This document shows positions 21,447 through 39,569 of a DNA stretch of 64,000 bases, one piece after another (positions within the stretch are counted from its first letter, which is position 1; every line of letters begins with the position of its first letter). Source of the DNA: Candidatus Eiseniibacteriota bacterium. GTDB taxonomy: Bacteria; Eisenbacteria; RBG-16-71-46. Position numbers and translations under genes: made by a program. The notes under the pieces are model-generated. The model saw only the letters and a program-made list of their open reading frames with translations. It did no database searches and was not told the DNA's origin. Location: the NCBI GenBank assembly GCA_963707915.1, contig OY970178.1, positions 1,152,001 through 1,216,000 on the forward strand, written 5' to 3'.

Positions 21447-22385
21447 CTACCGCAGCGACTTGCCGCCGGTGCGGCGCGACCACTCCACGGTCTGGATCAG
21501 CCCGTCGCGGAAGCTCGTCCGCGGGGTCCAGCCCAGCACCTGCTTCGCCCGCGTCGCGTCGAGGTAGATGCGCTGCACCTCACCCGGCCGCGCCGCCTCG
21601 TAGACCGGCTCGCCGGTGAAGCCCAGGATCGTCTTCAGCTCGCGGAAGATGTCGTTCACCGACGTGCCGATCCCGGTGCCGAGGTTCACCATCTCGCCGC
21701 TGCCCAGCGCGAGCGCCCGCTCGTTCCCCTCCACCACGTCCATGACGTAGAGGTAGTCGCGCACCTGCTCGCCCGTGCCGAAGATGTGCGGCGACCTCCC
21801 CTGCAGCATGGCCAGGATGAAGATGGCGTTCACGCCCGCCTCGCCGTGCGGATTCTGGCGCGGCCCGTAGACGTTGGGATAGCGCAGCACCGCGTAGTCG
21901 AGCCCGTGCAGGAGCTTCCAGAGGTAGAGGTAGTGCTCGAGCGTGTGCTTGCTCACGCCGTAGGGCGACTCCGGGTTGACCGGGTGGTCCTCGGTCGCGG
22001 GCAGCTGCCGTCCCTCCCCGTAGAGCGCCCCCCCGGTCGACGCGTAGACGAACTTGCGCACGCCGTGGCGGGTGCAGGCCTGCAACAGGCCCAGCGCGCC
22101 GAGGATGTTGGTGCCGGCGTCGAACACCGGGTCGTCCACCGAGCGGCGCACGTCGATCTGCGCGGCATGGTGGTCCACGACCTCGGGGCGGAACCCGGCG
22201 AAGCAGCGCTCGACCGCGGCGGCGTCCGTGAGGTCTGCTTCGTAGAGCCGGGCGGCGGGATTCACCAGCTCGCGGAACCCGCTGGAGAGGTTGTCGAGCA
22301 CGGCCACCTCGTGCCCGCGCTCGACGAAGCGGTCGACGACGTGCGAGCCGATGAAGCCCGCGCCACCGGTCACCAGGATGCGCAA
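21447..22385 (-). CDS. NAD-dependent epimerase/dehydratase (UDP-glucose 4-epimerase-like)
   Basis: Motifs TGGAGFIG, STGGALYG, YGVSK (YxxxK), NVYGPRQ and RDYLYV. Confidence 0.92.
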   Translation of the reverse strand: MRILVTGGAGFIGSHVVDRFVERGHEVAVLDNLSSGFRELVNPAARLYEADLTDAAAVERCFAGFRPEVVDHHAAQIDVRRSVDDPVFDAGTNILGALGLLQACTRHGVRKFVYASTGGALYGEGRQLPATEDHPVNPESPYGVSKHTLEHYLYLWKLLHGLDYAVLRYPNVYGPRQNPHGEAGVNAIFILAMLQGRSPHIFGTGEQVRDYLYVMDVVEGNERALALGSGEMVNLGTGIGTSVNDIFRELKTILGFTGEPVYEAARPGEVQRIYLDATRAKQVLGWTPRTSFRDGLIQTVEWSRRTGGKSLR

Positions 22386-22414
22386 GGGGTCCTCCGCCGA
22401 TCGGGTCGCGCGGC

Positions 22415-24637
22415 TCAACTGCCCGCGCTGGTCTCGAGCACCGCGGCCCGGCGTTCGGCCCGCACGCGCCGCATCCAGACCATGAAGCGCAGGCGCTCCC
22501 GCACCTCGAGGTCGCAATCCAGCACCACCGTCTCCCCACGCGATTGGGCGGGCCCTTCGATGGCCACGGGCGATCCGGGCGTGGCCTCCACGGGCTCCTG
22601 CGATCCCTCGACGGGCCCGGGCACCGCGACCACGGAGGCCGCTTCGGTCTCGAGGGCCGGTCCAGCCACGGAGGCCACTTCGATCACGGGGGCCGCTTCG
22701 GCCACGGGGGCCGCTTCGGCCACGGGGGCCGCTTCGATCACGGGGGCCGCTTCAGCCACGGAGGCCACTTCGATCACGGGGGCCGCTTCGATCGCGGGGG
22801 CCGCTTCAGCCACGGGGGCCCCTTCGATCGCGGGGGCCGTCTCTACCTCCGGGCCCACTTCGACCTCGCGGGTCGCCTCCATCGCCGGGGCCGCTTCAGC
22901 CACGGGGGCCACATCGATCACGGGAGCCTCGATGGCGTCAGGCTGCGCGACGACCGCCCGATTCGCGGTGGGCGATGGACCGGGATGCTGCGCCGCGCCG
23001 CCGGACCGGGCTTCGACTCTTGCCTCCATCAACCAGTCCAGGTCGAAGCAGGAGAACGGGATGCCAAGTCGTTCGGAGAGTGCGACCGCCTTCCTCGGAA
23101 GTCGCGGTCCGGGCTCGGCCCACCACGCTTCGAGGACCCGTCCTCCCAGCGGCAGCGCAGCCGCGCGCGTGACCTTCGGCTCGAGGGCCAGGAGCACCCG
23201 GTCGAAGTGCCCGCGCGCATCCTCGAGCAGCGCGCTCAGCTTGTCCCAGCACGCCGCCCGCCCGGGATCGCCGTGGGCCAGGAAGAAGAAGCCGGTGACC
23301 CCCGCCGCCTGCACCGTCCCCAGCAGCGGGATCTCGCCCGCCATGCACTCGCCGAGGCCCCAGCGCAGGTTCCCGCCGAAGCGTTCGTGCAGCCTCAGAC
23401 GCATCCCCGCGTCCACCAGCAGGACGCGCTCGCCCCGCTCGGTGAACCCGCCGGCCAGCGCGGCCGCGGCGTCCCCGATGCGCGCGCGGTCCGGTCCGCT
23501 CACGAGGTGAAGCCAACCCAGCTCCGCGTCCCAGGCCCGGAGCGCATCGCGGGACAACCGCTCGGCGCGCGGGTCCGGCGCGGCCCGGAAACCACGGGGC
23601 GCCCGCGCGGCGCGCCGCCGGGAGCGCCGCAACAGCCACGGCGCGGAAAGGACCAGGGCGAGCGCGGCCCCGGCGAGCGCGCCCGCCGCGGTGAGCGCGC
23701 CCCAGGTCCGCGCGACGGGGATCGCCCGCGACGCGGGCCCCCAGGTGCCGTGCATGAAGACCGCCGCGGCGGGGTCCGGGGCCAGGCGCTCGAGCGACAG
23801 CGCCCGCCCGAAGGCCTCGCTCACCACCGCATCGTACTGGGACCTGGACAGGCCCGCCTCGAGCGCGCGTTCCGCCTGGTCGAGCAACGGCGCACGCGTC
23901 CGTTCGTGCCACCTCCACGCCGCCTCGATCCGCGCGCGCGGGTCAGGCGCCGGCTCCGCGGCCAGGGACCTCAGCCACTCCCCCTCGGCAGCCGCGCAGG
24001 CGGTGAGCGCGGAAGCCAGCGAATCCGGCCGGGCGGCCAGGGCCAGGCGCACGACTTCGTCCTCGGCCCGCGTCAGCCGCGCCCGCTGCGCCACGCTGGC
24101 CGGCGTCTCGAACGGGGCCTGCGGGGCCACACGCAGGTCCACCAGGGCGACCAGCAGCAACCGCGCCCGGACGAGCACCGCGCACTGGCCGGCGGGCGGC
24201 AGCGCCGTCGTCACCGTCGGTGCGGGTTCGGCACGCCAGCGCTGGCGGGCCTCGGCACGGCGCGCGGCGGATGCGTCCACCCCGCTCAGGCGGCGACGCT
24301 GCAGGTCGCGGGCGAGGGCCTCCGTCCCCGTGGCCGTGAACGAACGCACGGCCAGCAGCGTGCGGTCCCGGTCCGCGACGGGAGCGGCCTGCTCGCCTGC
24401 TTGCCTGGGCCGCGGCCACTCCCCGGGGGCGGGCGGACCTCCCTGCCAGGCCACGCGGGACTCGAACAGGGGGACGCCGACGACGGCGAAACGCTCGGAC
24501 GAGATCCCCAGGAGGCCGGCGACCGGCAGAGCGGCACCCAGCAGGGCGCCCGCCAGGATCGCGACGCCCAGGCGTCCCCGCGCACCGGGTCGGCGGGTGG
24601 CGTCCGGAGGATGGGTGGCGTCTTCCCTGGCGCTCAT
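22415..24637 (-). CDS. Two-TM protein with a degenerate Wzc/CpsD-like ATPase domain and an acidic hexapeptide repeat tail
   Basis: TM-periplasmic-TM layout; [15 protein letters not shown] and FDRVLL align to the BY-kinase/MinD fold, but the Walker A GK[ST] is absent. Confidence 0.6.
22638..22925 (-). repeat. 16 x 18-bp coding tandem repeat, consensus peptide P-V-[AI]-E-A-A
   Basis: Plus-strand units such as GCCGCTTCGGCCACGGGG and GCCACTTCGATCACGGGG in exact 18-nt register. Confidence 0.92.
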
Positions 24638-24695
24638 CGGGTGGGTTTCGGGCTCCTTCCCTGGACAGGGCAGCCCTCATGGACCGCCGGAACGG

Positions 24696-24724
24696 AAGTT
24701 AGACGCCGGGCCGGGGCCGGTCAA
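24696..24724 (-). promoter_or_regulatory. Putative sigma70 promoter for the Wzc-like gene
   Basis: TTGACC-N17-TAACTT on the minus strand. Confidence 0.55.
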
Positions 24725-24732: not shown

Positions 24733-26526
24733 TCAGGCGGCGGCCGCCCTGCCTTCCGAACCCGTGTCGCCCGCTTCTTCCTGGCGCACGTCGGACCGCG
24801 GCAGGAGGAAGTAGAAGGTGCTGCCCTCGCCCGGCACGCTGTCGACGCCGATGGTGCCGCCGTGCTGCTCGACGATCCCCTTGCAGATCACCAGGCCCAG
24901 GCCCGTGCCTCCCACCCGGCGCGTGGAGCCGCTGTCGATCTGGGAGAACTTGCGGAAGAGCTTGTGGATGTCCCCGGGGCTGATGCCCTCGCCGCAGTCA
25001 CGCACGCTGACCCGCATCATCGGGCCCTCCGTCGCGACCCGGACCTCGATGCGTCCTTCGGGCGCCGAGAACTTGATGGCGTTCGACAACAGGTTGGTGA
25101 GCACCTGGGCGATGCGGTTCGAGTCCATCCGGAGGTCGGGCAGGCCGGGCTCGAAGCTGCAATCGAGGACGATGTGGCGCTCCGCGATCAGGGTGCGCAG
25201 GTTCTGCACCGCCTGCCGGACCACCGGCTCCAGGCCCTCGACCGCCATGCACATCGGCAGCGAGGCGGACTCGAGCTTCGAGAAGTCGAGGATGTCGTTG
25301 ATGAGCACCAGCAGCCGCTCGGCGTTGGCGTGGGCGATGTTCAGCAGCTTGGCCTGCTGCTCGTTGTTCTGGAAGTAGCGGTCGTCGGTGAGCAACTCCA
25401 CCGCGCCCTTGACCGACGTGAGCGGGGTGCGGATCTCGTGCGAGACCACCGCCACGAACTCGGACTTGAGGCGGTCGAGGACGCGGGTGTGCTCGTAGAG
25501 CCGCGAGTTGTGAACGGCGATGGCGGCTTCCGACGCGTAGAGCTCGAGGAACTTCTCGTCCGCCGCGCTGAACCCGCCCGGCTTGTCGAGCATGACCAGC
25601 AGTCCGAAGACCTGCTGGCCCGCCGACAGCGAGAGCGGCATCGCCAGCAGGGACTCGAACCGCTGCCCGCCGAGCAGCGGCAGCTCGATCGGGTGCTCCG
25701 CCGAGGCCACGCGGCGCACCGCCCGGTAGTCGGGGTGGTCGAAGCCGATGGCCCGCTCGGCCGTGAAGAAGTGGACCCGGTCGGCCTCGCCGCCCGGGAG
25801 CCCCAGCCCGTGGGCCGCGGCCACGCGGCCCTCCTCGGTCTCCTCGAGGCGCAGGTAGACCACGACGGCGCGGGCGCCCGACAGCTCGGCGGCCTTCGAG
25901 GCCACCGTGGCGACCCGCGGGTCGAGCTCGAGATCCGCGCTGATCTCCTTGCCCACCTCGTACAGGGTCCTCATCTGGTGGGTCGCCAGCCGGACCTGCT
26001 CGCGCAACTCCTGCTCGTGGTTGCTCAGGATCTCGTTCTTCTGGCTCAGCTCCTCGACCAGCTGGCGGTTGACGGCGCGCAGCCGGCGGTTGGCCAGCGC
26101 CCGCTCGACGCTGCTCTGCACGTCGTCCAGCTCGAACGGCTTGATGATGTAGTCGTAGGCCCCCTGCCGGATCGCGTCGATGGCCACGGCGGTGGTGGTC
26201 TCGCCGGTGATCAGGATGACCATGGTCTCGTCGTCCGCCTGCCGCGCGAAGCGCATCACGTCGAGGCCCGTGAGACCCGACATGTTGAGGTCGGAGAGCA
26301 CGGCGTCGGGCCGGTAGACGGGGATGCGCGCCACGGCGGCCTCGCCGTTCGCGGCCACCTCGACCTCGTAGCCGAGGGTGGTGAGGAACTCCTGCAGCAG
26401 CTCGGTGACCGTGGCCTCGTCGTCGACCACGAGCAGGCGGGCGGGCGGGCCGCCGCCCACCGCGGTCACGGGGCCGGGAAGCGGGCGGCCTTCGCCGGCC
26501 GGGGGCGTTCCGGGCTCACTGGACAC
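24733..26526 (-). CDS. Hybrid histidine kinase REC-coiled coil-GAF-HisKA-HATPase
   Basis: LLVVDDE, LSDLNM and KPF (receiver); SHEIRTPL; NLLSNAIKFS, DCGEGI and GTGLGL. Confidence 0.93.
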   Translation of the reverse strand: MSSEPGTPPAGEGRPLPGPVTAVGGGPPARLLVVDDEATVTELLQEFLTTLGYEVEVAANGEAAVARIPVYRPDAVLSDLNMSGLTGLDVMRFARQADDETMVILITGETTTAVAIDAIRQGAYDYIIKPFELDDVQSSVERALANRRLRAVNRQLVEELSQKNEILSNHEQELREQVRLATHQMRTLYEVGKEISADLELDPRVATVASKAAELSGARAVVVYLRLEETEEGRVAAAHGLGLPGGEADRVHFFTAERAIGFDHPDYRAVRRVASAEHPIELPLLGGQRFESLLAMPLSLSAGQQVFGLLVMLDKPGGFSAADEKFLELYASEAAIAVHNSRLYEHTRVLDRLKSEFVAVVSHEIRTPLTSVKGAVELLTDDRYFQNNEQQAKLLNIAHANAERLLVLINDILDFSKLESASLPMCMAVEGLEPVVRQAVQNLRTLIAERHIVLDCSFEPGLPDLRMDSNRIAQVLTNLLSNAIKFSAPEGRIEVRVATEGPMMRVSVRDCGEGISPGDIHKLFRKFSQIDSGSTRRVGGTGLGLVICKGIVEQHGGTIGVDSVPGEGSTFYFLLPRSDVRQEEAGDTGSEGRAAAA

Positions 26527-27322
26527 CGGCGGCCTCCGCTGCGACCACCCGGCGGCGGCCGGCCTTGACGGCCAGCGCCAGGGCCCGTTCGGCGCGGTCC
26601 ATGAGCTCGACGCTCTGGAGGCCGTCGCGCGGGCTCGCCGCGACCCCGGCGCTCACGCCCAGGCGGCCGGCGCGCGCGAAGCGGTGCTCCTCGGTGGTGC
26701 GGCGCAGACGCTCGGCGACGCGCAGCGCGGCGATCGGCTCGGTCTCCGGCAGCAGCACGGCGAAACGGCCGCCGGGCAGACGCGCCAGCGCGTCCGTCTC
26801 CCGCAGGGCGAGCCGCAGGACGAGCGCGGCCTCTCCCAGCACGGCGCGGGCCACCGAGGCGCCGTAGCGCTTCGCCAGCGCCGGGAAGCGGTCCAGTTCC
26901 ACGATGGTCACCGCCAGCGGCGCACCGTGCACGCGCACGCGGGCCAGTTCGTCGTCGAGCCGCTGCTGGAAGGCGTGCGCGTCGGGCAGTCCGGTCGCGG
27001 GGTCACGGCCGGGCTGACGACGCAGCCGTTCCAGTTCGAAGCGCGCGCCGAGGGCGGCGCCGAGCGCGCCGGACGCGGCGCGCACGAGGCCGAGCTGGGC
27101 GGGCTGCCAGTGCTGGCCGCGGCGCGCGAGCAGCTCGATCGTCCCCACGCGCTCGCTGCCGCGCAGCAACGGGACCGCCAGGCAGTCACGCAGGTCGCCG
27201 GGCCGGACCGACCATTCCCCGCAGGTCTGCCAGGGCTCGAGATCGCCGGACGGGCCGCGCGCCCGCAGGATCACGGCGTCGCAGTCGAAGGCCGTGCGCA
27301 GGCCGGCCAGCGCACGTTCCAA
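26516..27322 (-). CDS. GAF-like plus degenerate GGDEF protein (PGGRF) with intact RxxD I-site; start uncertain
   Basis: DPATGLPD, ELDRF, RETD-ALARL-PGGRF, SAGVA and AERALALA.K.GR. Confidence 0.85.
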   Translation of the reverse strand: MERALAGLRTAFDCDAVILRARGPSGDLEPWQTCGEWSVRPGDLRDCLAVPLLRGSERVGTIELLARRGQHWQPAQLGLVRAASGALGAALGARFELERLRRQPGRDPATGLPDAHAFQQRLDDELARVRVHGAPLAVTIVELDRFPALAKRYGASVARAVLGEAALVLRLALRETDALARLPGGRFAVLLPETEPIAALRVAERLRRTTEEHRFARAGRLGVSAGVAASPRDGLQSVELMDRAERALALAVKAGRRRVVAAEAAGVQ

Positions 27323-27505
27323 GGTCTTGCGCTCGACCGCGGCCGAGAGCAGCGCCTCGCACGCCTGCCACAGCGAACGCGAAGCGCGGCGGCGCTCCCC
27401 CCCGCACCCTGCGGGTCGGAGGCGCGCACCGTCGCCGGCCCCGGGGCCGGCGGCGCGGCCGGGCCGGGCCGGCGCGTGCGGGCGGGGCCGGTGCGCACGT
27501 CCGGC

Positions 27506-27901
27506 TCAGGCCGCACGGGACGTCGGCTCCGATCCGCGCTCGCGGGCCAGCACCGCGAGGGCGGACTTGAGGGTGTTGAGCCGGTGCGCGGCGTCCCGGA
27601 TGCGATCGGACTCACGGAGCACGACCTCCAGTCGGTCCCGGGCCCCCGGGACCGCGCCGGCGGGTCCCATGAGCAGGAGCTGGGCGTTGCCGCGCACCCC
27701 CACGAGGGCATTGTTGATGTCGTGGTAGACGCCGAGCTGGCGGACCAGCTCGTCCGTCCACCGCAGGTGGTCCTGCCACCAGTTCTCCAGCGCGGCGCAC
27801 AACTCGTCCGAGAGCTCGCCCTGGCCCGCGGCCTCGAGGCGGCCGGCCACGTCCAGCAGGGCCGAGCGCAGCGCGGCGTGCGGGGCGCCGGGCATCGTCA
27901 T
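27506..27901 (-). CDS. Small stand-alone HisKA/DHp-domain protein
   Basis: H-box HDINNALVGVRGNAQLL followed by a second helix; no HATPase domain; 131 aa. Confidence 0.75.
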   Translation of the reverse strand: MTMPGAPHAALRSALLDVAGRLEAAGQGELSDELCAALENWWQDHLRWTDELVRQLGVYHDINNALVGVRGNAQLLLMGPAGAVPGARDRLEVVLRESDRIRDAAHRLNTLKSALAVLARERGSEPTSRAA

Positions 27902-27918
27902 GTCCGCCGGGGCCGGGC

Positions 27919-28806
27919 TCAAGCCGCCAGCTCCTCGCTCGCCAGCGCCTTGTGCAGCCGCAGCCGCAGCCGGGCCATGGCGCGCGTGTGGACCTGCGAG
28001 ACCCGCGACTCGGAGATCCCGAGCGTGCGGCCGATCTCCTTGAGCGTGAGGTGCTCGTAGTAGTAGAGCGCCACCACGAGCCGCTCCTGCTCGGGCAGCA
28101 GGTCGAGCGTGCGCAGCAGGACCAGGCGCGTCTGCTCGTCTTCGAGCCGCGCGTCCAGGTCCACGGCGTGCGGGTCCGGCAGGTGCTCGCCCAGCGTCGT
28201 GGACTCCTGGTCCTCGCTCGAACGGGCCTCGTCCAGCGACACGAGCACCGCCCCGCGGACGTGGTCGAAGAGCCGGTAGAACTCGTTGCGGTTCATCTTG
28301 AGCTCGCGGGCCAACTCGTCCTCGGAGGCCGCGCGACCGAGCTTCTGGTCGAGCGCGCGGGTCACGCCGTCCAGCGTGCGCGCCTTGCGGCGCATCGAGC
28401 GCGACACCCAGTCGAGCGAGCGCAACTGGTCCAGCACGGCGCCCTTGATGCGCCACACGGCGTAGGTCTCGAACTTCACGCCCTTGCGCAGGTCGAACTT
28501 GGCGTGCGCGTCCAGCAGTCCCAGGACGCCCGCCGAGTAGAGGTCCTCGTGGTCCACGTTGCGCGGCAGGGTGGTGGCCACGCGTTCGACCACGTGCCTC
28601 ACCAGCGGCGCGAAGCGGCTCAGCAGCTCCTCCTTCGAGTAGGTCACGGGCGCCGGCGCCGGCACCAGGCGCAGGACGCGGGGCGCCGCGCTGCCCGCGC
28701 GGGGTGCGGACGCGGCCCGGCCCGGGGCCGGGCCCCGGGTGCGCGCGGGTACGGCAGGCTTCGCAACGCGGGTGCGCGTGCGGGTCGCGGCGGAGGGGCG
28801 TGCCAT
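27919..28806 (-). CDS. fliA: FliA/WhiG family RNA polymerase sigma factor (sigma28)
   Basis: Motifs DLYSAGVLGLLDA, FETYA..RIKGAVLDQLRSLDWVSRS and LYYYEHLTLKEIG..LGISESRVSQ; GAGGAG RBS. Confidence 0.95.
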   Translation of the reverse strand: MARPSAATRTRTRVAKPAVPARTRGPAPGRAASAPRAGSAAPRVLRLVPAPAPVTYSKEELLSRFAPLVRHVVERVATTLPRNVDHEDLYSAGVLGLLDAHAKFDLRKGVKFETYAVWRIKGAVLDQLRSLDWVSRSMRRKARTLDGVTRALDQKLGRAASEDELARELKMNRNEFYRLFDHVRGAVLVSLDEARSSEDQESTTLGEHLPDPHAVDLDARLEDEQTRLVLLRTLDLLPEQERLVVALYYYEHLTLKEIGRTLGISESRVSQVHTRAMARLRLRLHKALASEELAA

Positions 28807-29764: not shown

Positions 29765-30021
29765 CAGTGGCCTGCGCCCGACCGGGTGGCGCGGGACCGT
29801 GGCGCGGCCGGCAGCGCGAAGAGCGCCGAGAGGAACTCCCAGTAGCGCAGCTGCTCGCGGCAGCGGTGCAGCGGCTCCTCGAGGCCGAGCCGCTCCAGGC
29901 GGCGCTCCTCCTCGCGCAACGAGGCCAGCGCGGCGCGCGACTGGTCGGCGCGCAGCGCGGGCGTGGGCGGGATGGCGCGGCGCGGGTCGGAGCGGGACGT
30001 GAGCGCGGGCTGGCGGTTCAC
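29764..30021 (-). CDS. Small hypothetical helical protein (85 aa)
   Basis: GTG start overlaps the upstream stop and its own stop overlaps the flhG ATG; core sequence LREEERRLERLGLEEPL.RCREQLRYWEFL. Confidence 0.6.
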   Translation of the reverse strand: MNRQPALTSRSDPRRAIPPTPALRADQSRAALASLREEERRLERLGLEEPLHRCREQLRYWEFLSALFALPAAPRSRATRSGAGH

Positions 30022-30326
30022 GACGCCCTCCGCAGGCGCGCGGCCGGGGTCGCGAAGCGCGGCAGGCCCGCCCGCGCGACGCCGCCGCCGACCCGCTCGC
30101 GAAGCTGCGAGAGCAGCGCGGCGTAGGAGCGCTCGATGCGGGCGGCCGGGACGCCGAGCACGCTCGCCGCCTCGGAGGGCGTCAGGCGCTCGAAGAGCAG
30201 CAGGGCGAGGAGCACGCGTTCGCGCACGGCGCACCCGCTGAGGGCGCGTGCCACGACCTCGCGGCAGTCGTGCCGGGGGAGCGCGACCAGGCGGTGCGAG
30301 GACGGGGCCGGACGGCGCGGGCGCAT
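30018..30326 (-). CDS. Sigma70 region-4-only protein
   Basis: ERVLLALLLFERLTPSEAASVLGV aligns without gaps to FliA region 4 (ERLVVALYYYEHLTLKEIGRTLGI). Confidence 0.7.
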   Translation of the reverse strand: MRPRRPAPSSHRLVALPRHDCREVVARALSGCAVRERVLLALLLFERLTPSEAASVLGVPAARIERSYAALLSQLRERVGGGVARAGLPRFATPAARLRRAS

Positions 30327-30727
30327 CAGGCGGCCCTGCGCTGCGGCCGCACGTCACGGAGGTCCGCCGCCCGCCGCAGCGAACGGTGCACGGCGTGGCG
30401 GAGCGCGTCCATGGCGAACGGCTTGGGGAAGCACTCGAAGACGCCGGCGGCGGCGAGCGCGCGCAGCGTCTCGGGGCTGCCGTAGGCGGTCAGGATGATG
30501 ACCGGTAGGGTCCGGCGGCTGCGCGCCAGCTTGCGGGCCAGGTCGAGACCGCTCATGCCCGGCAGGCGCAGGTCGGAGATCACGAGGTCGCACTGGTCCT
30601 GCTGCAGCCAGCCCAGCGCCTCCTCCGCGGACGAGAACGTGTCGATGCTGAAGCCGTCGTCCGAGAGCCCCTCGGCCAGGGCCCAGGCGGTGCTCGGTTC
30701 GTCTTCGACGATCAGGATGTGGGGCAT
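30326..30727 (-). CDS. Single-domain response regulator (receiver)
   Basis: Motifs ILIVEDE, ISDLRLPGMSG, ILTAY and KPF; GGAG RBS. Confidence 0.92.
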   Translation of the reverse strand: MPHILIVEDEPSTAWALAEGLSDDGFSIDTFSSAEEALGWLQQDQCDLVISDLRLPGMSGLDLARKLARSRRTLPVIILTAYGSPETLRALAAAGVFECFPKPFAMDALRHAVHRSLRRAADLRDVRPQRRAA

Positions 30728-30763: not shown

Positions 30764-30780
30764 TGCACCCCGCGTGCCAG
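30764..30780 (-). promoter_or_regulatory. Sigma54 (-24/-12) promoter
   Basis: CTGGCACGCGGGGTGCA on the minus strand, with exact GG-N10-GC spacing, ~36 nt upstream of the receiver gene. Confidence 0.85.
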
Positions 30781-31195: not shown

Positions 31196-32617
31196 TCAGA
31201 GGTCCTCGCCCGCCTCGTCCGGGTCGTCGCCGAGCGCGTAGTCCTTGAGCTTCGTGCGCAACGTCTGGCGCGAGATGCCCAGTTGCTTCGCGGCGAGCGT
31301 CTTGTTGCCACCGCACACTGACAACGCGTGCTCGATCGCCAGCTTCTCGACCTCGACCAGCGGCCGCACCACTCCGGGCAGGAACACCCCCGCCGCCGAA
31401 GCCGGGGCGCGGGGCCCCCCGCGCGTTCCGGTCACCTCCGGCGGCAGGTGCTCGACGCGGATCTCGTCCTCGGCCTCGAGCAGCACGACGCGCTCCATCA
31501 GGTTCCGCAGCTCCCGGACGTTTCCCGGCCAGGCGTAGTCGAGCAGCACGCGCAGGGCGTCGGGGTGCAGCCGCGCCGTGGGGCGGCCCAGCTCGCGGCA
31601 GAACTGGGCGACGAAATGCTCGGCCATGAGCGGCACGTCCTCACGGCGCTCGCGCAGCGGCGGCACCTCGATGGGGACCACGTTGAGGCGGAAGTAGAGG
31701 TCCTCGCGGAAGCGCCCCTCCGCCACCGCCTTCGGCAGGTCGCGGTGGGTGGCGGCGATGACGCGCACGTCCACGGTGATGTCGCTCCCGCCGCCCACGC
31801 GGCGGAAGGTGCGGGTCTCGAGGACGTGGAGCAGCTTGGCCTGCAGGCCCGGGGTCATCTCGCCGATCTCGTCGAGGAACAGCGCGCCGCCGTCGGCCAG
31901 CTCGAAGAGGCCCTTCTTGAAGCGCTTGGCGTCGGTGAAGGCGCCCTTCTCGTGTCCGTACAGCTCGCTCTCCAGCAACTGCTCGGGGATGGCGCTGCAG
32001 TTGAGCTCCACGAACGGGCCATCGGCGCGCGCGCTGTGCGCATGGAGGTAGCGCGCCAGCAACCCCTTGCCCGAGCCGGTCTCGCCGCGGACCAGGATGG
32101 TCGCGGTGCCGCTCTTGCCCGCCTTCTCGAGGCGCTTGAGCGCGAGGCGCAGGCCCGGGCTCTCCCCGATGATGGGCGGGCACTTCTCCAGCCGGGCGCT
32201 CGCGACCTCGCGGCGCAGACGCCCGCGCTCGAGCGCGCGCTTCAGCACGATGCCGAGGTGCTCGAGGTTCGGGGGCTTGAGCATGAAGTCGAAGGCCCCC
32301 AGCCGGGTGGCCTCGACCGCGTGCTCGATGGTGCCGTGCCCGGTGAGCATGAGGACCGGCAGGTCCGGCTCCTCGGCGCGCAGGCGCCGGAGCACGTCGA
32401 GCCCGTCCTCGGCCCCCAGCCTCAGGTCGAGGATGACCGCGTCGACCGACCGGTCGCGCACGTGATCGATCGCCGTCCCGCCGTCCTCGGCCTCGAGGGG
32501 GTGGTAGCCGGCATCGCGCGCCCACTCGCCGATGCTGAAGCGCAGCGAGCGCTCGTCGTCAACGATGAGCAGCGTCTGAGGGGCCTGCGTCCGCGGCGCT
32601 GCTTCGTCTTTCGCCAT
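31196..32617 (-). CDS. Sigma54-dependent response regulator (NtrC/AtoC/FleR-like REC-AAA+-HTH)
   Basis: Motifs [48 protein letters not shown] and a Fis-type HTH. Confidence 0.96.
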
Positions 32618-33791
32618 GTCGCTTCTCCACGTGGAAATCCAGGAGCACGGTGGTGCCGCCGCCCTCGCGGCTCGCGACCTCGATCGCGCCGCCGTGCTCC
32701 TGCATGATGGTCTGGCAGATGGACAGCCCCAGCCCGCTGCCCTTCGGTTTGGTCGAGAAGAACGGGTCGAAGAGCTTGTCGAGCGCGCCCCGCGGGATCC
32801 CCGCGCCGCTATCGGTCACGCGGATCTGCTGGATGGCGATCCACTCCCCCGGCGCGGTGCCGTGCGCCGAGCGGAGCGCGCCGGCCCGGCGTTCCGGACC
32901 GTCCCCGGCCCGGCGTCCGGGACCACGCGGGGCCCGGCGGCGGCGGGTCATGCGGACCTCGTAGCGCAGCGTGCCGCCCTGCGGCATGGCCTGCACCGCG
33001 TTCAGCGTCACGTTGAGGACGACCTGCGTCACCAGGTCGGCATCGATCCAGACCGGCCGGAGCCCGGGCTTCGCCTCGACCTCGACGCGCACGCCGGACC
33101 GGGCGAACGAGTCGGCCGAGAGCTCGACGACGCGCCGCACGCAGTCCTCGAGCCGGCCGGGCCTCAGCTCGGGGGTCCGCGGGCGCGCGTACTGCAGCAG
33201 GTTCGTGACCAGCCGGTCGAGCCGCGCCACCTCTTCGAGGATGACGCTCACGAAGCGCGCCCGCGGGTCGCGGGGCTCGAAGCGCCCCAGCAGCACCTGC
33301 GCGCTGACGCCGATGCCGGCCAGCGGGTTGCGGATCTCGTGCGCCACTCCCGCCGAGAGCTGGCCGATGGTCGCGAGGCGCTCGTTGCGCCGCAGCTCCT
33401 GCTGCATCCGGCGTGGCTGCGTGAGATCGCGCAGCACGAGCAGGACGCGCGCCGGGCGGCCGAAGCGGAAGCCCCGCAGGAGCACCGGCACCTCGCCCCC
33501 ACCGCGCGGGGCGAGCATGATCTCGCGCTGGGTCGTCTCGGCGCCGAAGGTCTCGGCGACCGGGTCGTCGCCGGGCACGACGGTGCGTACCAGCCCGGAG
33601 GCGGCGCGCCCGCGGACCACGGTCCCCCGCAGTCCGAGCAGGCGCAGGGCCGCCGGGTTCGCGGCCGTCACGCGGCCCCGCGGGTCGAGCAGCAGGACCC
33701 CGTGCTCGACATCGGCCATGAGCAATCGGCCGGCAGCCTCCACGGGTGCCGTTCCCTCAGCGCGTGCGCGGACCGTGCGCTTCACCGGCAT
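32559..33791 (-). CDS. Cytoplasmic PAS sensor histidine kinase (NtrB/FleS-like)
   Basis: PAS segment ANPAALRLLG, AHEIRNPL, NAVQAM, DSGAGI, PFFSTK and GSGLGL; no TM segment. Confidence 0.93.
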   Translation of the reverse strand: MPVKRTVRARAEGTAPVEAAGRLLMADVEHGVLLLDPRGRVTAANPAALRLLGLRGTVVRGRAASGLVRTVVPGDDPVAETFGAETTQREIMLAPRGGGEVPVLLRGFRFGRPARVLLVLRDLTQPRRMQQELRRNERLATIGQLSAGVAHEIRNPLAGIGVSAQVLLGRFEPRDPRARFVSVILEEVARLDRLVTNLLQYARPRTPELRPGRLEDCVRRVVELSADSFARSGVRVEVEAKPGLRPVWIDADLVTQVVLNVTLNAVQAMPQGGTLRYEVRMTRRRRAPRGPGRRAGDGPERRAGALRSAHGTAPGEWIAIQQIRVTDSGAGIPRGALDKLFDPFFSTKPKGSGLGLSICQTIMQEHGGAIEVASREGGGTTVLLDFHVEKRHGERRSSAADAGPSDAAHR

Positions 33792-33837: not shown

Positions 33838-33862
33838 AAAAGCCCGCCGGGGCGGCGGGCTT
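33838..33862 (-). terminator. Intrinsic terminator after csrA-flgM
   Basis: Minus-strand hairpin GCCCGCCG-CCC-CGGCGGGC followed by TTTTGGTTT. Confidence 0.8.
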
Positions 33863-34118
33863 ATCGGTCCGTCAACTCCTCCAGGATCGCGTCCAGCAGC
33901 TTCTCACGCACGTCCGCGCGGTCGTAGAAGCCGGCGGCGATGCGCGCGCGCGCGGCCTCGACCCGGGACCTGCGCACGTCCGCCTCGCCACGTGAGCGCT
34001 CGGTGCCCGCGGGGGGCACCAGTCGGATGCGCGCGCGGCGCAGGGAATCCCGATCGAGGACTCCCGTGCCGCCTGCGTCGGCGAAGCCGGTCGCGGACGC
34101 CTCGTCGGCGGCCGTCAT
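33861..34118 (-). CDS. flgM: FlgM-like anti-sigma28 factor
   Basis: 85 aa; low-complexity N-terminus, then DVRRSRVEAARARIAAGFY...KLLDAIL, matching the FlgM C-terminal D.R..+V..++..I..G.Y pattern. Confidence 0.75.
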   Translation of the reverse strand: MTAADEASATGFADAGGTGVLDRDSLRRARIRLVPPAGTERSRGEADVRRSRVEAARARIAAGFYDRADVREKLLDAILEELTDR

Positions 34119-34131: not shown

Positions 34132-34380
34132 TCAGCGGGAGCCGCCCGCCTTGCCCGGATCGCCCCTGGTACCCGGCGGTCCCGGCTCGCCCGGCTTTCC
34201 CTGCTGCGCGCGACGGGTTTCCTCCTGGATGCGGGCATAGATCTCTTCGCGGTGGACCTTCACCTCGGGCGGCGCCTCGATGCCGAGCTTCACCTGGCCC
34301 GAGCGCACTTCCAGCACGGTGATCTTGACCGAGTCCCCGATCCGGATGTTTTCGCCTAACTTCCTTGTTAGGACCAGCAT
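34132..34380 (-). CDS. csrA: Carbon storage regulator CsrA/RsmA
   Basis: [16 protein letters not shown]...[24 protein letters not shown]. Confidence 0.97.
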
Positions 34381-34435: not shown

Positions 34436-34463
34436 GTATCGGCTTGGGCCGCGCATGACTTGA
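34436..34463 (-). promoter_or_regulatory. Putative sigma28 promoter of csrA-flgM
   Basis: TCAAG-N15-GCCGATAC on the minus strand. Confidence 0.75.
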
Positions 34464-34760: not shown

Positions 34761-35237
34761 TCAGTCGCCCCAGCGCCCCGGGACGCCGAAGCCGGGATAG
34801 TAGCCGGGGTACTGGTACTGCAGCGGCGAGCGCAGGTCCTGGTATTGGATCTGGAACTGCATCGAGCGGCTCGGCTGGTAGGCGAGGCTGAAGCCCTGCA
34901 GGTAGAACGACTGACCGTTGCGCGGGGTGTTGGCTCCCCACGCGTTGCCCAGGCTCACGCTCATCGCGACCGGGACCTTGAAGCTGTAGCTGAGCGTCGT
35001 CACCTGCAGCGCGCTCGTGCCGCGCGAGCCCCATCCCGACGAGCCCACGCTCACCATGGACGAGACGTGCAGTCGCGACGGATCGATCCAGTCGCGGGCC
35101 AGGCCGAAGGCGCTGACCGGGACGCGGGGGCTGAACAGCGGCGCGCCGCCGATCATGCCGGCGATCGAGTGGCCAGCGAGGCAGACGGCAAGGATCACGG
35201 ACACCAAGGCGGGCACGACGATCCGGCGCAGGTTCAT
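34761..35237 (-). CDS. Exported hypothetical beta-rich protein
   Basis: Signal peptide MNLRRIVVPALVSVILAVCLAG, alternating beta-strand pattern, Tyr/Pro/Gly-rich tail. Confidence 0.75.
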   Translation of the reverse strand: MNLRRIVVPALVSVILAVCLAGHSIAGMIGGAPLFSPRVPVSAFGLARDWIDPSRLHVSSMVSVGSSGWGSRGTSALQVTTLSYSFKVPVAMSVSLGNAWGANTPRNGQSFYLQGFSLAYQPSRSMQFQIQYQDLRSPLQYQYPGYYPGFGVPGRWGD

Positions 35238-35244
35238 GGCTCGA

Positions 35245-35273: not shown

Positions 35274-35368
35274 CTGGATTGTGGCCACGGTGCGCCCCTC
35301 GACGACCTCGACCCGCGCGGTCTGGCCGCGCGGGTCCAGGTCCGGAGATCCGGAACGTCAAGCTCCTG

Positions 35369-36418
35369 TCAGGCTTCCACCTTGAGGACGATGCGCAGGA
35401 CGATCTCCTGCGCCGCGCCGCGCGGGATCGTGACCGGCACGACGAGCTCGGCGGGCCCGGCCTTCGGCGTCTCCGTCGCGACCGTCGCGACTACCGCAAG
35501 CGGCGCGACCGGCGCGACCGCGGGGGCCGCAGCGGACGCGACGACCGGCGCGGGGGCCGTCGCCTGGCGCGGAGCCGGCTGGGCCTCCGCGGCGGCCACG
35601 GTCTTCAGCCGCGGCGCGCTCTCACCGGGGAGCGTGATCTCGCGCCCGTACTCGAGACCCGCCACCACCGCGTCGTTCTCCCGCGCGATGGTCTCCTGCG
35701 CCTCCTGCGCGATGGACCACTGGGGCGCCAGCGGCGACGCTGCCTGCGTGCGCGAGGGATCCGCCTTCGCCGTCGGCTCCGCGCCACCCGGGACCGGGCG
35801 CGAGGCCGCGCTCGCGAACGGCGTGCGGCGCAGGTCCTTCGTCACCTTCTCCATGAGCAGGTGCGAGACGCCGCGGAAGGTCTCGAACACGCCCTTGCCG
35901 GTCGGGGCCACCGCCTCGAAGCTCGGCACCTTGCCCCCCGGGTTCAACTCGGCGTCGAGTTCCTCGACCGAGTAGACGTTGGGGAGATCGCGCTTGTTGT
36001 ACTGGATCACCCACGGGGTCTCGTCGAGGCTCAGTCCGTACTCGGCGAGGTTCGTCTTCAGGTTGAGGAGGCTCTCCTTGTTCTCCTCCATCTTGCCGAC
36101 CTCGCTGTCGGCGACGAAGACGATGGCGTCCGCTCCCTTGAGCACGAGCTTGCGGGTGGCGTTGTAGAACACCTGGCCCGGCACCGTGTAGAGCAGGAAG
36201 CGGGTCTTGAACCCCATGATCTCGCCCAGGTCGAGCGGCAGCAGGTCGAAGAAGAGCGTCCGGTCGGACTGCGTCTTCATGCTGACCATCTTGCCGCGGC
36301 TGGTATCGGGCACCGCCTCGTAGATGGCCTCGAGGTTCGTCGTCTTGCCGCTCAAGCCCGCACCGTAGTAGACGAGCTTCGCGTTGATCTCCTTGCCCGA
36401 GTAGCTCACGACAACCAC
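35369..36418 (-). CDS. mglA: MglA-family small GTPase with a ~150-aa C-terminal extension
   Basis: Motifs EINAKLVYYGAGLSGKTTNL, DRTLFFDLLPL, YTVPGQVFYNATR and QYNKRDL; AGGAGG RBS before the GTG. Confidence 0.9.
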   Translation of the reverse strand: MVVVSYSGKEINAKLVYYGAGLSGKTTNLEAIYEAVPDTSRGKMVSMKTQSDRTLFFDLLPLDLGEIMGFKTRFLLYTVPGQVFYNATRKLVLKGADAIVFVADSEVGKMEENKESLLNLKTNLAEYGLSLDETPWVIQYNKRDLPNVYSVEELDAELNPGGKVPSFEAVAPTGKGVFETFRGVSHLLMEKVTKDLRRTPFASAASRPVPGGAEPTAKADPSRTQAASPLAPQWSIAQEAQETIARENDAVVAGLEYGREITLPGESAPRLKTVAAAEAQPAPRQATAPAPVVASAAAPAVAPVAPLAVVATVATETPKAGPAELVVPVTIPRGAAQEIVLRIVLKVEA

Positions 36419-36692
36419 GGCGCGTCCCTCCTGATGCGACCCCACACTGTCACAAAGCCGGATCCCATGGAGCCCCTTGCCGCCCTTCTCCACGGAGACC
36501 TTGAGAGCGGACGATCCGTCCCTGTCGATCGCCGGGCGCGAAGGCCCGTGATCGGGACGGCCGGCACCGCCGCATGGGGTCGCAACGCTGGTTGGGGGAG
36601 CTCCGCCCCGCCCGCCCGGGAGCCCTGCACGGATTCCCGATGCGGTCGGACAGGTGAAGTCACGATGCGGAGCGCCACCCTGTCAGGTGGGC

Positions 36693-36720
36693 TTATCGGC
36701 GCGGGGAGCGCGTTCCCTTA
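36693..36720 (-). promoter_or_regulatory. Putative sigma28 promoter upstream of mglA
   Basis: TAAGG-N15-GCCGATAA on the minus strand. Confidence 0.65.
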
Positions 36721-36847
36721 GCGAAAAGGCGGAGGAGCGCCAGGGGCCGCCGGGTCGGCGCGGACGGGCCCCGGCTGCGCCGGGAGGCGGGCGCGGGGGG
36801 CCTGCCCCGGCGCGGGGCGCAGCCCGCAGGGCGCGGGCGCCCGCCGG

Positions 36848-37270
36848 CTAGAGGCCGGATCCCGCCAGGGCGCTCTCCCGACGGAGGAAGACGCCGGGGC
36901 GCTCGCGCAGGTGGGGCTGCATGCGACAGTCGGCGCGCTCGTAGTGGCTCAGGAAGATGCGCTTGAGCTCCTCGCAGCGGTCGCTGGCGAAGTAGCGCCG
37001 GGCCCGGGTGAACATCTCGTCGCGCTCGGAGTACACGAAGGCCGTGACCTCCGTGACCCGCTCGTACTGCGACTCCCCGTACGCCGCGCCGGGGGAGTCC
37101 TCCATGTCGAGCCAGAGCGAGGCCCGCGGATTCAGGACCTCGAAGTTGTGCCGGCCGGTCATCAGGTGCTCCCACAGGCCGAAGATCTCGAGGGGCACGT
37201 ACCGCTCCGTGGCGGGCCCCGTGCCGCCGGCGCGCCGAATCTCGCAACGCATGATCTTCTGGCTGCCCAT
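36848..37270 (-). CDS. Hypothetical protein (140 aa)
   Basis: GGAGG RBS, globular-looking composition, high-GC third-position codon usage; no family recognised. Confidence 0.7.
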   Translation of the reverse strand: MGSQKIMRCEIRRAGGTGPATERYVPLEIFGLWEHLMTGRHNFEVLNPRASLWLDMEDSPGAAYGESQYERVTEVTAFVYSERDEMFTRARRYFASDRCEELKRIFLSHYERADCRMQPHLRERPGVFLRRESALAGSGL

Positions 37271-39563: not shown

Positions 39564-39569
39564 GCGCCC

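Follow-up and report, generated by a model that had tools for sequence, protein, structure and literature searches.

A flagellar-type regulatory module, conserved across Candidatus Eisenbacteria, that probably serves a non-flagellar programme

Introduction

What do the regulators of a flagellar hierarchy control when no flagellar genes lie beside them? The question is raised by a window of 64,000 nt from Candidatus Eiseniibacteriota (assembly GCA_963707915.1, contig OY970178.1, positions 1,152,001-1,216,000 of the forward strand), which is the whole stretch of DNA analyzed here. An island at 21,447-37,270 of this window, with all of its genes on the minus strand, encodes regulators of flagellar type together with several signalling proteins. 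Comparisons with related loci and genomes make it likely that the island is a two-promoter regulatory module conserved across Ca. Eisenbacteria, that it is an orthologue of the 3' tail of a flagellar operon, and that it now serves a non-flagellar programme.

Organization of the island

The features are listed below in window coordinates, with genes as called by GC3. The last two lie outside the island.

21447-22418, minus: NAD-dependent epimerase/dehydratase (PF01370, 207 bits)
22415-24637, minus: Wzc-like membrane protein, degenerate P-loop domain, repetitive C-terminus (NF008568 and sequence reading)
24733-26469, minus: REC-GAF histidine kinase (REC, GAF, HisKA, HATPase_c)
26516-27322, minus: GGDEF protein, degenerate active site, truncated GAF (PF00990, 87 bits)
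27506-27922, minus: DHp-only protein, HisKA-like helix with conserved His (HisKA 25.2 bits, E 1.7e-5)
27919-28806, minus: FliA/WhiG-family sigma-28 factor, FliA2 (TIGR02479, NF005413)
28817-29764, minus: MinD/FlhG-like P-loop ATPase, FlhG2 (ParA, CbiA, AAA_31 domains)
29764-30021, minus: orf85, conserved small protein (tblastn)
30018-30326, minus: sigma region-4-only protein (hhalign; Sigma70_r4_2 in orthologs)
30326-30727, minus: single-domain receiver, REC (PF00072, 98.6 bits)
30764-30780, minus: sigma-54 promoter CTGGCACGCGGGGTGCA, some 50 nt ahead of the start of REC (sequence reading)
31196-32617, minus: NtrC-type response regulator, sigma-54 activator (REC, Sigma54_activat at 221 bits, HTH_8)
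32559-33725, minus: PAS histidine kinase (PAS, HisKA, HATPase_c)
33861-34118, minus: FlgM-like small protein, putative anti-sigma-28 factor (PF04316, 15.5 bits)
34132-34380, minus: CsrA (PF02599 91 bits; NF002469 95 bits, over cut-off)
34437-34463, minus: sigma-28-type promoter TCAAGTCATGCGCGGCCCAAGCCGATA upstream of csrA (sequence reading)
34761-35237, minus: orf158, probable exported protein (gene call)
35369-36409, minus: MglA-type small GTPase, low-complexity C-terminal extension (phmmer against PDB)
36848-37270, minus: orf140, small protein upstream of mglA (GC3 call)
40845-40871, plus: second sigma-28-type promoter in the window, TCAAG-N15-GCCGATA (genome scan)
40949-43762, plus: PAS-PAS-HK-REC hybrid kinase, predicted sigma-28 target (Pfam domains and promoter)

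The gene order described in a sequence-only reading of this DNA was borne out, and the synteny of the island proved to be conserved. Of 80 related loci, most show the same order, so it is not a product of chance. The genes from REC through the DHp-only protein overlap by 1-4 nt or are separated by a 10-nt gap, and the sigma-54 promoter ahead of REC, which is adjoined by the genes for the PAS kinase and the NtrC-type activator, is kept in 55 of 56 related loci.

Several proteins of this operon have unusual domain compositions. An open reading frame occupies the position of the sigma4-only protein in all 49 of 49 loci. The protein aligns to residues 226-286 of FliA2 (hhalign probability 96%, E 1.9e-9), and its orthologs match Sigma70_r4_2 in 21 of 32 cases and PhyR_sigma-like in 6 of 32. 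FliA2 itself scores well over the family cut-offs (TIGR02479, 242 bits against 189.6; NF005413, 227 against 201), while FlhG2 matches minD_arch at 148 bits, under the cut-off. No ATPase domain was found in the DHp-only protein, whose orthologs are 115-138 aa long and carry the motif H(D/E)INNALVGVRGN. The GGDEF protein had been read as degenerate, and the ortholog alignment agrees: PGGRF stands in place of GG[DE]EF, with the RxxD (I-site) retained. The Wzc-like gene is present as described, but the similarity is weak and confined to the P-loop (NF008568, Wzc: E 2.7e-4, 19 bits), Walker A is degenerate on reading the sequence, and a Pfam search gave no match.

Family searches also gave no match for orf85, orf158 or orf140 (Pfam and NCBIfam for the last). 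Orthologs of orf85 were nevertheless found by tblastn in most of the 80 loci, with half of the query or more covered in 51 cases, and those of orf158 have a signal-peptide-like N-terminus. The distribution of orf140 is narrower (8 of 80 loci by tblastn). Orthologs of 104-116 aa lie upstream of mglA in two of four relatives inspected (L015 and L031), and the counterpart is part of a longer fused open reading frame in L020 and a called fragment only in L047.

The second promoter, upstream of csrA and the gene for the FlgM-like protein, matched a strict regular expression in 32 of 43 loci, and GCCGAT was kept in nine of the other 11, seven times as GCCGATA. The match of the FlgM-like protein to PF04316 falls below the cut-off of 25 bits, and 11 of 30 orthologs match at E<=1 (best 0.0023). 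A model of its complex with FliA2 scored 0.61, compared with 0.00 for the best of three controls, and so passed a mark that 116 of 157 solved complexes reach, as do two of 215 mismatched pairs. Model runs share at least 68% of contacts, with a partner pLDDT of at least 64, and the interface joins FliA2 residues 227-284 to residues 47-82 of the FlgM-like protein. The model supports binding of this protein to sigma region 4, although solved sigma-28/FlgM structures that the model has memorized may account for the score.

A separate flagellar cluster in the same genome

The island had been described as lacking flagellar genes. This holds within the window, where there are no flagellar structural matches, but not for the genome. 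Flagellar and chemotaxis genes, in what looks like a complete set, lie about 470-560 kb from the island (C1, 1.66-1.714 Mb), with the flagellin, FHIPEP, rod and FlgEFG matches all at 1.68-1.71 Mb. A complete flagellar set elsewhere, with these regulators as its orthodox controllers, had been named as the finding that would count against a non-flagellar role. Such a set exists, but the island regulators do not appear to control it in the orthodox way, because the cluster has its own flhA-flhF-flhG-fliA, sigma-54 activator and FlbT/FlaF. Two FliA/WhiG genes in the genome score over the cut-off, the island copy and that of the cluster (221 bits).

A predicted regulon beyond the flagellum

The sigma-28-type motif of the csrA promoter is spacing-specific and missing from the reversed control. 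In this genome, TCAAG-N15/16-GCCGATA has 11 matches and none when reversed. Counts peak at N15-16, with four at N13-14 and zero or one at the other spacings tried. Five FlhA-less genomes gave 45 matches compared with one in the control, and 18 of 30 sites examined in FlhA-less genomes fall between genes, no more than 350 nt from one. The downstream genes recur between genomes, in particular those for HEAT proteins and a hybrid kinase. These counts suggest that the motif marks a non-flagellar regulon.

Besides csrA and the gene for the FlgM-like protein, the motif lies ahead of about a dozen genes. Predicted targets include pilM, an HDOD protein, three hybrid kinases (the site at 40845-40871 is 78 nt upstream of a hybrid PAS kinase gene), HEAT-repeat proteins, a PBP5-like peptidase, a TonB-dependent receptor and cheY. 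Targets other than pilM and cheY point to no single obvious output. Sites of similar form, TCAAx-N15-xCCGAxA, occur at late flagellar genes of this genome (flgL, flagellin, cheY), so the two sigma-28 paralogs are indistinguishable by promoter, and FliA2 may act on the flagellum too in this genome.

Distribution and ancestry

Across 151 genomes of the uncultured phylum Eisenbacteria (Ca. Eisenbacteria), FliA/WhiG is found over the cut-off in 143, FlhA in 51 and FlgE/F/G in 55. Neither FlhA nor FlgE/F/G is present in 96 genomes, and 91 of these retain a FliA/WhiG sigma factor. Incompleteness of metagenome-assembled genomes may explain missing flagellar genes in some cases, yet 71 of 118 high-quality genomes are without both markers. 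Within the genus, FlhA is absent from four of five other genomes and the sigma factor is over the cut-off in three (G059, which is the FlhA carrier, G106 and G120).

The genes fliQ-fliR-flhB-flhA-(flhF)-flhG-fliA are present in all 14 loci fetched from other families, with a GGDEF gene downstream in 11 and the REC-GAF kinase too in eight, counts that are limited to the stretches fetched, four of which stop at a contig end. The flhG (13 of 14) and fliA (14 of 14) genes of these families are closer matches to the island copies than to those in the flagellar cluster of the window's lineage, represented by the G059 query. A quick FliA tree, with two distant sigma factors as its root, agrees: island-type and flhA-linked sequences form one clade (SH-aLRT 99), apart from the flagellar-cluster type (97). 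Taken together, synteny and tree point to an ancestral operon, fliQR-flhBA-flhF-flhG-fliA...GGDEF-kinase, of which the island has kept the 3' end and which other families still have intact. The ancestral order would have been fliQ-fliR-flhB-flhA-flhF-flhG-fliA-...-HDOD-GAF-GGDEF-REC-GAF-HK, and the upstream structural genes would have been lost in the lineage of the window, the tail surviving behind a sigma-54 promoter. Loss of structural genes, as opposed to later insertion, is the direction suggested by that quick tree with its two distant outgroup sigmas. The genome also carries the second flagellar cluster type, with its own sigma-28.

Alternative explanations

In other bacteria, flgM or fliA often sit apart from the flagellar cluster, and the island genes might likewise be the orthodox regulators of the cluster 470-560 kb away, merely placed at a distance. 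The existence of that cluster, the resemblance between its sigma-28-like sites and the island motif, and the classic flagellar roles of CsrA and FlgM all fit this explanation. We consider it unlikely, given the cluster's own flhF-flhG-fliA and activator, the sigma factor in 91 of 96 genomes without FlhA and FlgE/F/G, and its persistence in a genus where FlhA is mostly absent. Furthermore, FliW was not found in the genome at E<=1, and the DQAxxLR motif, present in the cluster copy of FlhG, is missing from FlhG2. Far less probable still is that the island is left over from a lost flagellar regulon, decaying and now without function. Descent from a flagellar operon and the degenerate GGDEF active site and Wzc-like P-loop could be read in this way, but gene order and both promoters are conserved, FliA2 has more than 100 invariant columns over 28 orthologs, and no frameshift was observed over 8.5 kb of the island in comparison with a short-read relative. 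The core island genes are under purifying selection (dN/dS 0.19-0.30 for FliA2, 0.08-0.27 for CsrA and 0.28-0.46 for FlhG2). With synteny kept and dN/dS well under 1, the remnant explanation was rejected.

A different proposal concerns the output, which would be exopolysaccharide plus surface motility or polarity that depends on MglA and type IV pili; the FlhG-like ATPase would be a spatial regulator of pili and not of flagella. Residues 2-191 of the GTPase match MglA chains 3t12, 6h17, 6hjh and 5ymx at E 5e-72 by phmmer against PDB, and mglA lies upstream here and in nine related loci, distant ones included. In addition, a TCAAG/GCCGATA site precedes pilM in this genome and a Wza-like exporter gene in one FlhA-less relative; the island is flanked by genes for Wzi, a glycosyltransferase, the epimerase and the Wzc-like protein, and a sugar transferase follows the kinase in one flagellated relative. 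The proposal is tentative. The regulators had been described as wired to MglA; the proximity is conserved, but it is the only basis for that claim and does not equal regulation. A sigma-28 site before mglA was not found, signalling and HEAT-repeat proteins make up most of the predicted targets, and the check for the pilM site covered this genome.

A model and its relation to known systems

In the favoured explanation, a conserved module redirected to a non-flagellar programme, the PAS kinase and NtrC-type activator would turn on the operon through sigma-54, and FliA2 would then read TCAAG/GCCGATA promoters. Negative feedback would come from the FlgM-like protein as it binds region 4 of the sigma factor, and CsrA would act at a further, post-transcriptional level. 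Signals from c-di-GMP and a phosphorelay would enter through the GGDEF protein (whose active site is degenerate here but whose I-site is retained), the DHp protein and the REC-GAF kinase. The programme itself would cover signalling and the cell envelope, and probably surface motility as well.

Polar flagellates such as Vibrio and Pseudomonas use a hierarchy in which FlrB/FlrC (FleS/FleR) act through sigma-54 on flhF-flhG-fliA. The island is similar in that a PAS kinase and NtrC-type activator adjoin a sigma-54 promoter and flhG immediately precedes fliA. It differs in having no flhA or flhF upstream, in the missing DQAxxLR of FlhG2, and in the REC, sigma4-only and orf85 genes between promoter and flhG. 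The PhyR-NepR-EcfG partner switch of Alphaproteobacteria offers another parallel: there, too, a receiver is accompanied by a sigma-like domain, which by mimicry of the true sigma could sequester an anti-sigma factor. In the island, however, receiver and sigma-like part are separate proteins, the latter is region 4 only, and the sigma factor is of sigma-28 type, not ECF.

A closer precedent is the non-flagellated Legionella oakridgensis, which, as reviewed in PMC5655016 (citing Tlapak et al. 2017), keeps FliA and FlgM after loss of the flagellar regulon. According to that review, its flgM expression is sigma-28-dependent, and secretion via a basal body is not available as a way to clear its FlgM. 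In both cases, on this account, a sigma-28 factor and an anti-sigma factor (putative and FlgM-like here) are retained after flagellar loss, flgM is itself under sigma-28 control (predicted here), and basal-body export cannot dispose of FlgM. Unlike that single species, retention in Eisenbacteria spans most sampled families of the phylum, and the genome of the window has a separate flagellar cluster. Compared with what the review describes, Eisenbacteria also keep more: the sigma-54 kinase/activator pair and promoter, the FlhG-like ATPase, CsrA, the sigma4-only, DHp and GGDEF proteins, and the kinase. Streptomyces WhiG, with its anti-sigma factor RsiG and c-di-GMP, is described in PMC12871210 as a sigma-28-family factor with a non-flagellar programme. 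As in that description, a sigma-28-family factor would act outside flagella with c-di-GMP signalling linked to its control, but the candidate anti-sigma factor here is FlgM-like and the c-di-GMP link is an adjacent GGDEF gene only.

Conclusions

The proposal that the control layer was kept for another programme is supported phylum-wide by the 91 of 96 genomes, synteny, purifying selection and the non-flagellar sigma-28-type motif. Since most members keep the regulators without flagellar genes, these regulators probably control something else now. In most members of the Eisenbacteria, the flagellar-type regulator set appears to have outlasted flagella.

Gene content of the island

The regulatory island occupies the minus strand of the window from 37270 to 21447. 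Lists of open reading frames are noisy because the G+C content of the window is about 74%; genes were called from third-position G+C and then checked against Pfam, NCBIfam, and PDB sequences. Because the family assignments agree, the gene list proposed in the sequence-only reading is correct almost item by item.

Genes of the island, minus strand, in order from 37270 to 21447
Small conserved ORF
MglA
Small protein, probably exported
csrA
FlgM-like protein, 85 residues
PAS histidine kinase
NtrC-type sigma-54 activator
Gap of 470 nt
REC, a single-domain receiver
Sigma4-only protein, 102 residues
orf85, an ORF of 85 residues
MinD/FlhG-like ATPase (FlhG2)
FliA/WhiG sigma-28 factor (FliA2)
DHp-only protein, 138 residues
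GGDEF protein
REC-GAF histidine kinase
Wzc-like protein
Epimerase

No family was assigned to the first small ORF. Residues 2–191 of MglA match the solved MglA chains 3t12, 6h17, 6hjh, and 5ymx (E 5e-72), and the CsrA domain lies above cut-off (91.2 bits versus 27 for PF02599, 95.2 versus 73 for NF002469). FliW (PF02623) gave zero matches at E≤1 in the window's genome, which is 94.8% complete. In two distant relatives, an ORF with a FliW-like C-terminus, recognized by eye, stands directly before csrA (fetched loci L084:~1400–1632 and L092:~1800–2026); this is the orthodox fliW–csrA pair, absent in the window's lineage.

The description of the GGDEF protein as degenerate holds, in that PGGRF stands where the active cyclase motif GG[DE]EF is expected. 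Orthologs in other islands read GGDEF, GGDAF, GGDQF, or PGDHF, and those in flagellar contexts GGEEF. In degenerate-GGDEF receptors for c-di-GMP the I-site RxxD stands five residues before the A-site, and a candidate I-site is kept, as RETD in the window protein and as RxxD in 10 of 10 aligned sequences. The hallmarks of Wzc and other BY-kinases are a Walker A motif, GxxxxGK[ST], and a C-terminal tyrosine cluster. The Wzc-like label is borne out only in part: this membrane-type protein matches the Wzc P-loop region locally only, at 19 bits, and its Walker A is degenerate and its C-terminus an Ala/Pro/Val/Glu repeat without tyrosines.

Several smaller features accompany these genes. Short C-terminal tails conserved between the window proteins and their orthologs (RRAS/RRAA in the sigma4-only protein, window 30018–30326; SRAA in the DHp-only protein, 27506–27922; RLEA in the FlhG-like ATPase, 28817–29764) could be degradation or docking signals. 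A frameshift in the DHp gene near 27409 was ruled out, the orthologs being of equal length and the indel intergenic. Envelope and polysaccharide genes flank the island (window 18219–21436 and 37519–40826), among them Wzi, a PMT_2 glycosyltransferase, a lipid A acyltransferase-like protein, a GT4 glycosyltransferase, and an MFS transporter; in L198, a flagellated relative, the gene after the kinase encodes a Bac_transf sugar transferase. Several relatives carry a gene of 262–265 residues between the exported protein and csrA (L020:3509–4297, L031:3377–4174) that looks trpA-like, judged by eye, and is missing from that place in the window.

The sigma factor and its putative partners

FliA2 exceeds curated cut-offs for its family (TIGR02479, 242.4 bits versus 189.6; NF005413, 227.1 versus 201) and has the Pfam sigma regions r2, r3, and r4. 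The window contains no flagellar structural gene; its orthologs in other families are linked to flhA–flhF–flhG. The gene immediately upstream encodes FlhG2, a P-loop ATPase of the MinD/ParA type with the deviant Walker A sequence SGKGGVGKS, which matches ParA, CbiA, AAA_31, and, under its cut-off, minD_arch (148 bits). The N-terminal DQAxxLR motif of FlhG activates FlhF. There is no flhF in the island, and DQAxxLR is absent from FlhG2 and from those island orthologs whose N-termini were read by eye. The motif is present in the FlhG of a flagellar cluster elsewhere in the genome and in 4 of 13 flhA-linked orthologs, and it was set aside as a clean discriminator because so few of the latter carry it.

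The FlgM label of the sequence-only reading stands in part. The protein scores 15.5 bits against PF04316, under the gathering score of 25, and a PDB profile search with its alignment returned nothing relevant; FlgM is the sole family that recurs among the orthologs, 11 of 30 matching PF04316 at E≤1 (best 0.0023). A complex of FliA2 residues 55–295 with FlgM-like residues 30–85, both supplied as alignments, was modelled alongside three controls and scored 0.61 versus 0.00 for the best control. Solved complexes attained that mark in 116 of 157 cases, and mismatched pairs in 2 of 215. The runs had 68% or more of their contacts in common, and the partner pLDDT was at least 64. In the predicted interface, the conserved C-terminus of the FlgM-like protein (47–82) lies against sigma region 4 (FliA2 227–284). 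The model supports binding of the FlgM-like protein to FliA2 rather than demonstrating it, and may draw on solved sigma-28/FlgM complexes.

Promoters and the predicted regulon

A sigma-54 promoter had been proposed before REC. The gap upstream of REC contains the −24/−12 element CTGGCACGCGGGGTGCA, with the activator gene directly upstream, and TGGCAC-N5-xTGCA occupies the equivalent position in 55 of 56 related loci; the promoter is therefore real. A strict sigma-54 pattern with TTGC at −12 misses this site, which reads GTGCA in the island. Promoters for sigma-28 have a consensus of the TAAA-N15-GCCGATAA type, and TCAAGTCATGCGCGGCCCAAGCCGATAC, upstream of csrA, is a −35/−10 pair of this kind. 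The strict pattern was found in 32 of 43 related loci. Nine of the remaining 11 keep GCCGAT (seven as GCCGATA) with a variant −35, and the other two, which are distant, have a FliW-like C-terminus in its place. Conservation of this motif before the csrA–flgM-like pair suggests that transcription of the FlgM-like gene would depend on sigma-28.

The motif read upstream of csrA, TCAAG-N15/16-GCCGATA, has 11 matches in the window's genome versus 0 for the reversed control. Matches peak at N15–16, with 4 at N13–14 and 0–1 at the other spacings tried. A looser pattern finds 21 sites, about 15 of them between genes and directed at a gene start. Behind these sites lie csrA, pilM, and cheY, as well as the genes for the PAS hybrid kinase of the window, two paralogous HK-REC-Hpt kinases, two HEAT-repeat proteins, an HDOD protein, a TPR membrane protein, a TonB-dependent receptor, and a PBP5-like peptidase. 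The HDOD gene behind a TCAAG/GCCGATA site lies at 2235–3299 of the genome's contig (C1); in flagellated relatives, HDOD sits in the operon between fliA and GGDEF. Five genomes that have the sigma factor and lack FlhA contain 45 matches to the motif versus 1 for the control, and 18 of 30 sites fetched from FlhA-less genomes lie between genes and have a gene no more than 350 nt away. Among the products encoded there are MreB, a hybrid kinase, a STAS protein, an RsbU-like phosphatase, a Wza-like exporter, and, in three genomes, HEAT-repeat proteins. Flagellar late genes of the window's genome carry sites that are alike but less exact, so the two sigma-28 paralogs of this genome are inseparable by motif.

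A flagellar cluster elsewhere in the genome

The island had been described as a flagellar hierarchy without flagellar genes, which is false for the genome as a whole. Family searches of this single 3.62-Mb contig found flagellin, FlhA, and rod proteins at 1.68–1.71 Mb, 470–560 kb from the window, and the region C1:1660000–1714000 holds a complete-looking flagellar and chemotaxis cluster. Among the genes sought, flagellin, flhA, flhB, fliF, flgE, motB, flhF, and che genes are present outside the window, and no fliW was found in the genome.

Genes of the flagellar cluster, 1.66–1.72 Mb
Chemotaxis and motor: cheB/R/D, MCPs, cheW, cheA, cheY, motB
Structure and export, part one: flgK, flgJ, flgI, flgH, flgA, flgG, flgF, flhB, fliR, fliOPQ, fliN, fliM, fliL
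Structure and export, part two: flgE, flgD, fliJ, fliI, fliH, fliG, fliF, fliE, flgC, flgL, flagellin
Regulation: its own flhA-flhF-flhG-fliA, a sigma-54 activator, flbT, flaF

FlbT and FlaF are flagellin regulators of the alphaproteobacterial type. Sigma-54-like sites are seen before fliL, flgB, and flgF in the cluster (C1:1660000–1714000; loci L010–L013). Only two FliA/WhiG genes in the genome lie above cut-off, the window's FliA2 and the fliA of this cluster, and the island regulators are paralogs of the cluster's own regulators.

Whether this cluster is itself decaying has to be weighed, as its FlhA is spread across three reading frames and breaks also affect FlhG, FlhB, FliP, FliI, FliG, and FlgG. 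The comparison was made with a collinear short-read assembly from the same genus (87.5% nucleotide identity), in which the seven genes called from fliQ to fliA are intact. Over about 38 kb the cluster differs from it by 11 isolated frameshifting changes, nearly all of them +1 insertions in this assembly. Control regions contain 21 differences of the same type in 108.9 kb, patchily distributed (32 in about 147 kb in total), and rpoC is intact. Since the control regions show the same kind of change and rpoC is unbroken, a cluster of pseudogenes was rejected; the +1 insertions that split the flagellar genes are probably assembly errors, and decay of the cluster cannot be claimed. Examples of such insertions are at C1:1691257, 1691480, 1704150, and 3367165–3369787.

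Conservation of the island and its spread across the phylum

A search with FliA2 gave 80 loci with 50–92% identity, nearly all of them labelled Eisenbacteria. The synteny looked for in related genomes is there: by tblastn, most of these loci keep the order csrA, FlgM-like, PAS kinase, activator, REC, (sigma4), orf85, flhG-like, fliA, DHp, GGDEF, REC-GAF kinase, (Wzc-like), and epimerase. Just 3 of the 80 have flagellar structural genes beside the sigma gene. REC and orf85 are separated by an ORF with a sigma4-like core in 49 loci out of 49, and FliA2 has more than 100 invariant columns across 28 orthologs. Pairwise dN/dS ratios, which are if anything overestimates because a GC3 near 97% probably depresses dS, are 0.19–0.30 for FliA2, 0.28–0.46 for FlhG2, and 0.08–0.27 for CsrA; the small proteins give larger ratios, as high as 1.09 in one sigma4 pair.

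Eisenbacteria are a widespread phylum of soil and sediment with, to our knowledge, no cultured member. Our sample comprised 151 genomes, each at least 80% complete, 118 of them of high quality. FliA/WhiG is above cut-off in 143, FlhA in 51, and FlgE/F/G in 55, including all 51 genomes with FlhA; among the high-quality genomes, FlhA and FlgE/F/G are each found in 47. Neither structural marker is present in 96 genomes, and 91 of these have the sigma factor. In one family the sigma factor is above cut-off in 30 of 32 genomes and a hook or rod protein in none. The earlier interpretation therefore fails where it took the window's own genome to lack flagellar genes, and holds across the phylum, where the control layer is kept and probably used without them. 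Five genomes (G021, G053, G099, G144, and G118) have two FlhA genes each, in score classes of about 880 and about 780 bits. Because some genomes hold FlhA of both classes, two flagellar systems in the phylum are suggested, the window's genome having the second type only.

Origin of the island

A search with the cluster FliA indicates a second copy, of the flagellar-cluster type, in about 28 genomes. In other families, the only FliA is encoded within a few kb of FlhA, and the order fliQ-fliR-flhB-flhA-(flhF)-flhG-fliA is found in all 14 loci fetched from them. A GGDEF gene lies downstream of fliA in 11 of these loci and a REC-GAF kinase as well in 8; loci without these genes are uninformative because four of the 14 stretches end at a contig edge. 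Two Pfam-annotated loci have an HDOD gene and a GAF-GGDEF gene (GGEEF intact) after fliA. The other-family flhG (13 of 14) and fliA (14 of 14) are closer to the island copies than to the cluster copies of this lineage, for which the queries came from G059, an FlhA-bearing genome of the window's genus.

A quick maximum-likelihood tree of FliA was built from 70 rows (28 of 75 island sequences taken at random, and all others) and rooted on two distant sigma factors. FliA of the flagellar-cluster type forms one clade (SH-aLRT 97). A second clade (99) mixes flhA-linked and island-type sequences, with the window sequence in a subclade of island types only (97), so that comparison with flagellar orthologs joins the island type to the flhA-linked genes and sets both apart from the cluster type. 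On the simplest reading of these sequences, the island would be the tail that was kept from an ancestral flagellar operon, though which way the change went hinges on the rooting.

A possible release mechanism for sigma-28

Behind the sigma-54 promoter, REC and the sigma4-only gene come first. The sigma4-only profile aligns with FliA2 residues 226–286 (96% probability), and PhyR_sigma-like Pfam matches were found in 6 of 32 of its orthologs. In PhyR, a sigma-like domain fused to a receiver binds the anti-sigma factor on phosphorylation, whereas the island has two separate adjacent genes that overlap by 1 nt, and the PhyR-type fusion is absent. One proposal, considered unlikely, is that the two form a split PhyR-like partner switch for sigma-28, with the sigma4-only protein as a decoy for FlgM. 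Such a role is conceivable because the protein aligns with exactly the segment of FliA2 that was modelled against the FlgM-like protein. Phosphorylation of the receiver would then let the sigma4-only protein titrate FlgM and free sigma-28, and in cells that have lost the flagellum the decoy would take over the role of export through the hook-basal body. Phosphoryl groups might flow from the DHp-only protein together with the REC-GAF kinase, with a possible c-di-GMP input from the degenerate GGDEF protein.

Precedents and biological significance

The closest known case to the island is FliA/FlgM of Legionella oakridgensis, which, according to a review, has lost the whole flagellar regulon but FliA and FlgM; its flgM is described as depending on sigma-28, and degradation, not secretion, as the presumed fate of FlgM (PMC5655016). 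Another sigma-28 with a non-flagellar role is Streptomyces WhiG, together with RsiG and c-di-GMP (PMC12871210). For Eisenbacteria, a CsrA survey mentions a low predicted frequency of CsrAs repressing B. subtilis hag (PMC13443453). Literature searches, on Eisenbacteria and flagella among other subjects, found no paper describing the island, and Legionella and WhiG were the only precedents they gave.

A sigma-28 circuit with a sigma-54 trigger, an FlhG-like ATPase, an FlgM-like anti-sigma factor, and CsrA has thus survived the loss of the flagellum across most of the phylum, and the TCAAG/GCCGATA motif gives a concrete handle for predicting its targets. The island shares with L. oakridgensis the question of how FlgM is relieved when secretion is impossible. 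The intact flagellar operon, the tail alone, and the tail with a second flagellar system make up a natural series for the rewiring of a checkpoint after its structure is lost.
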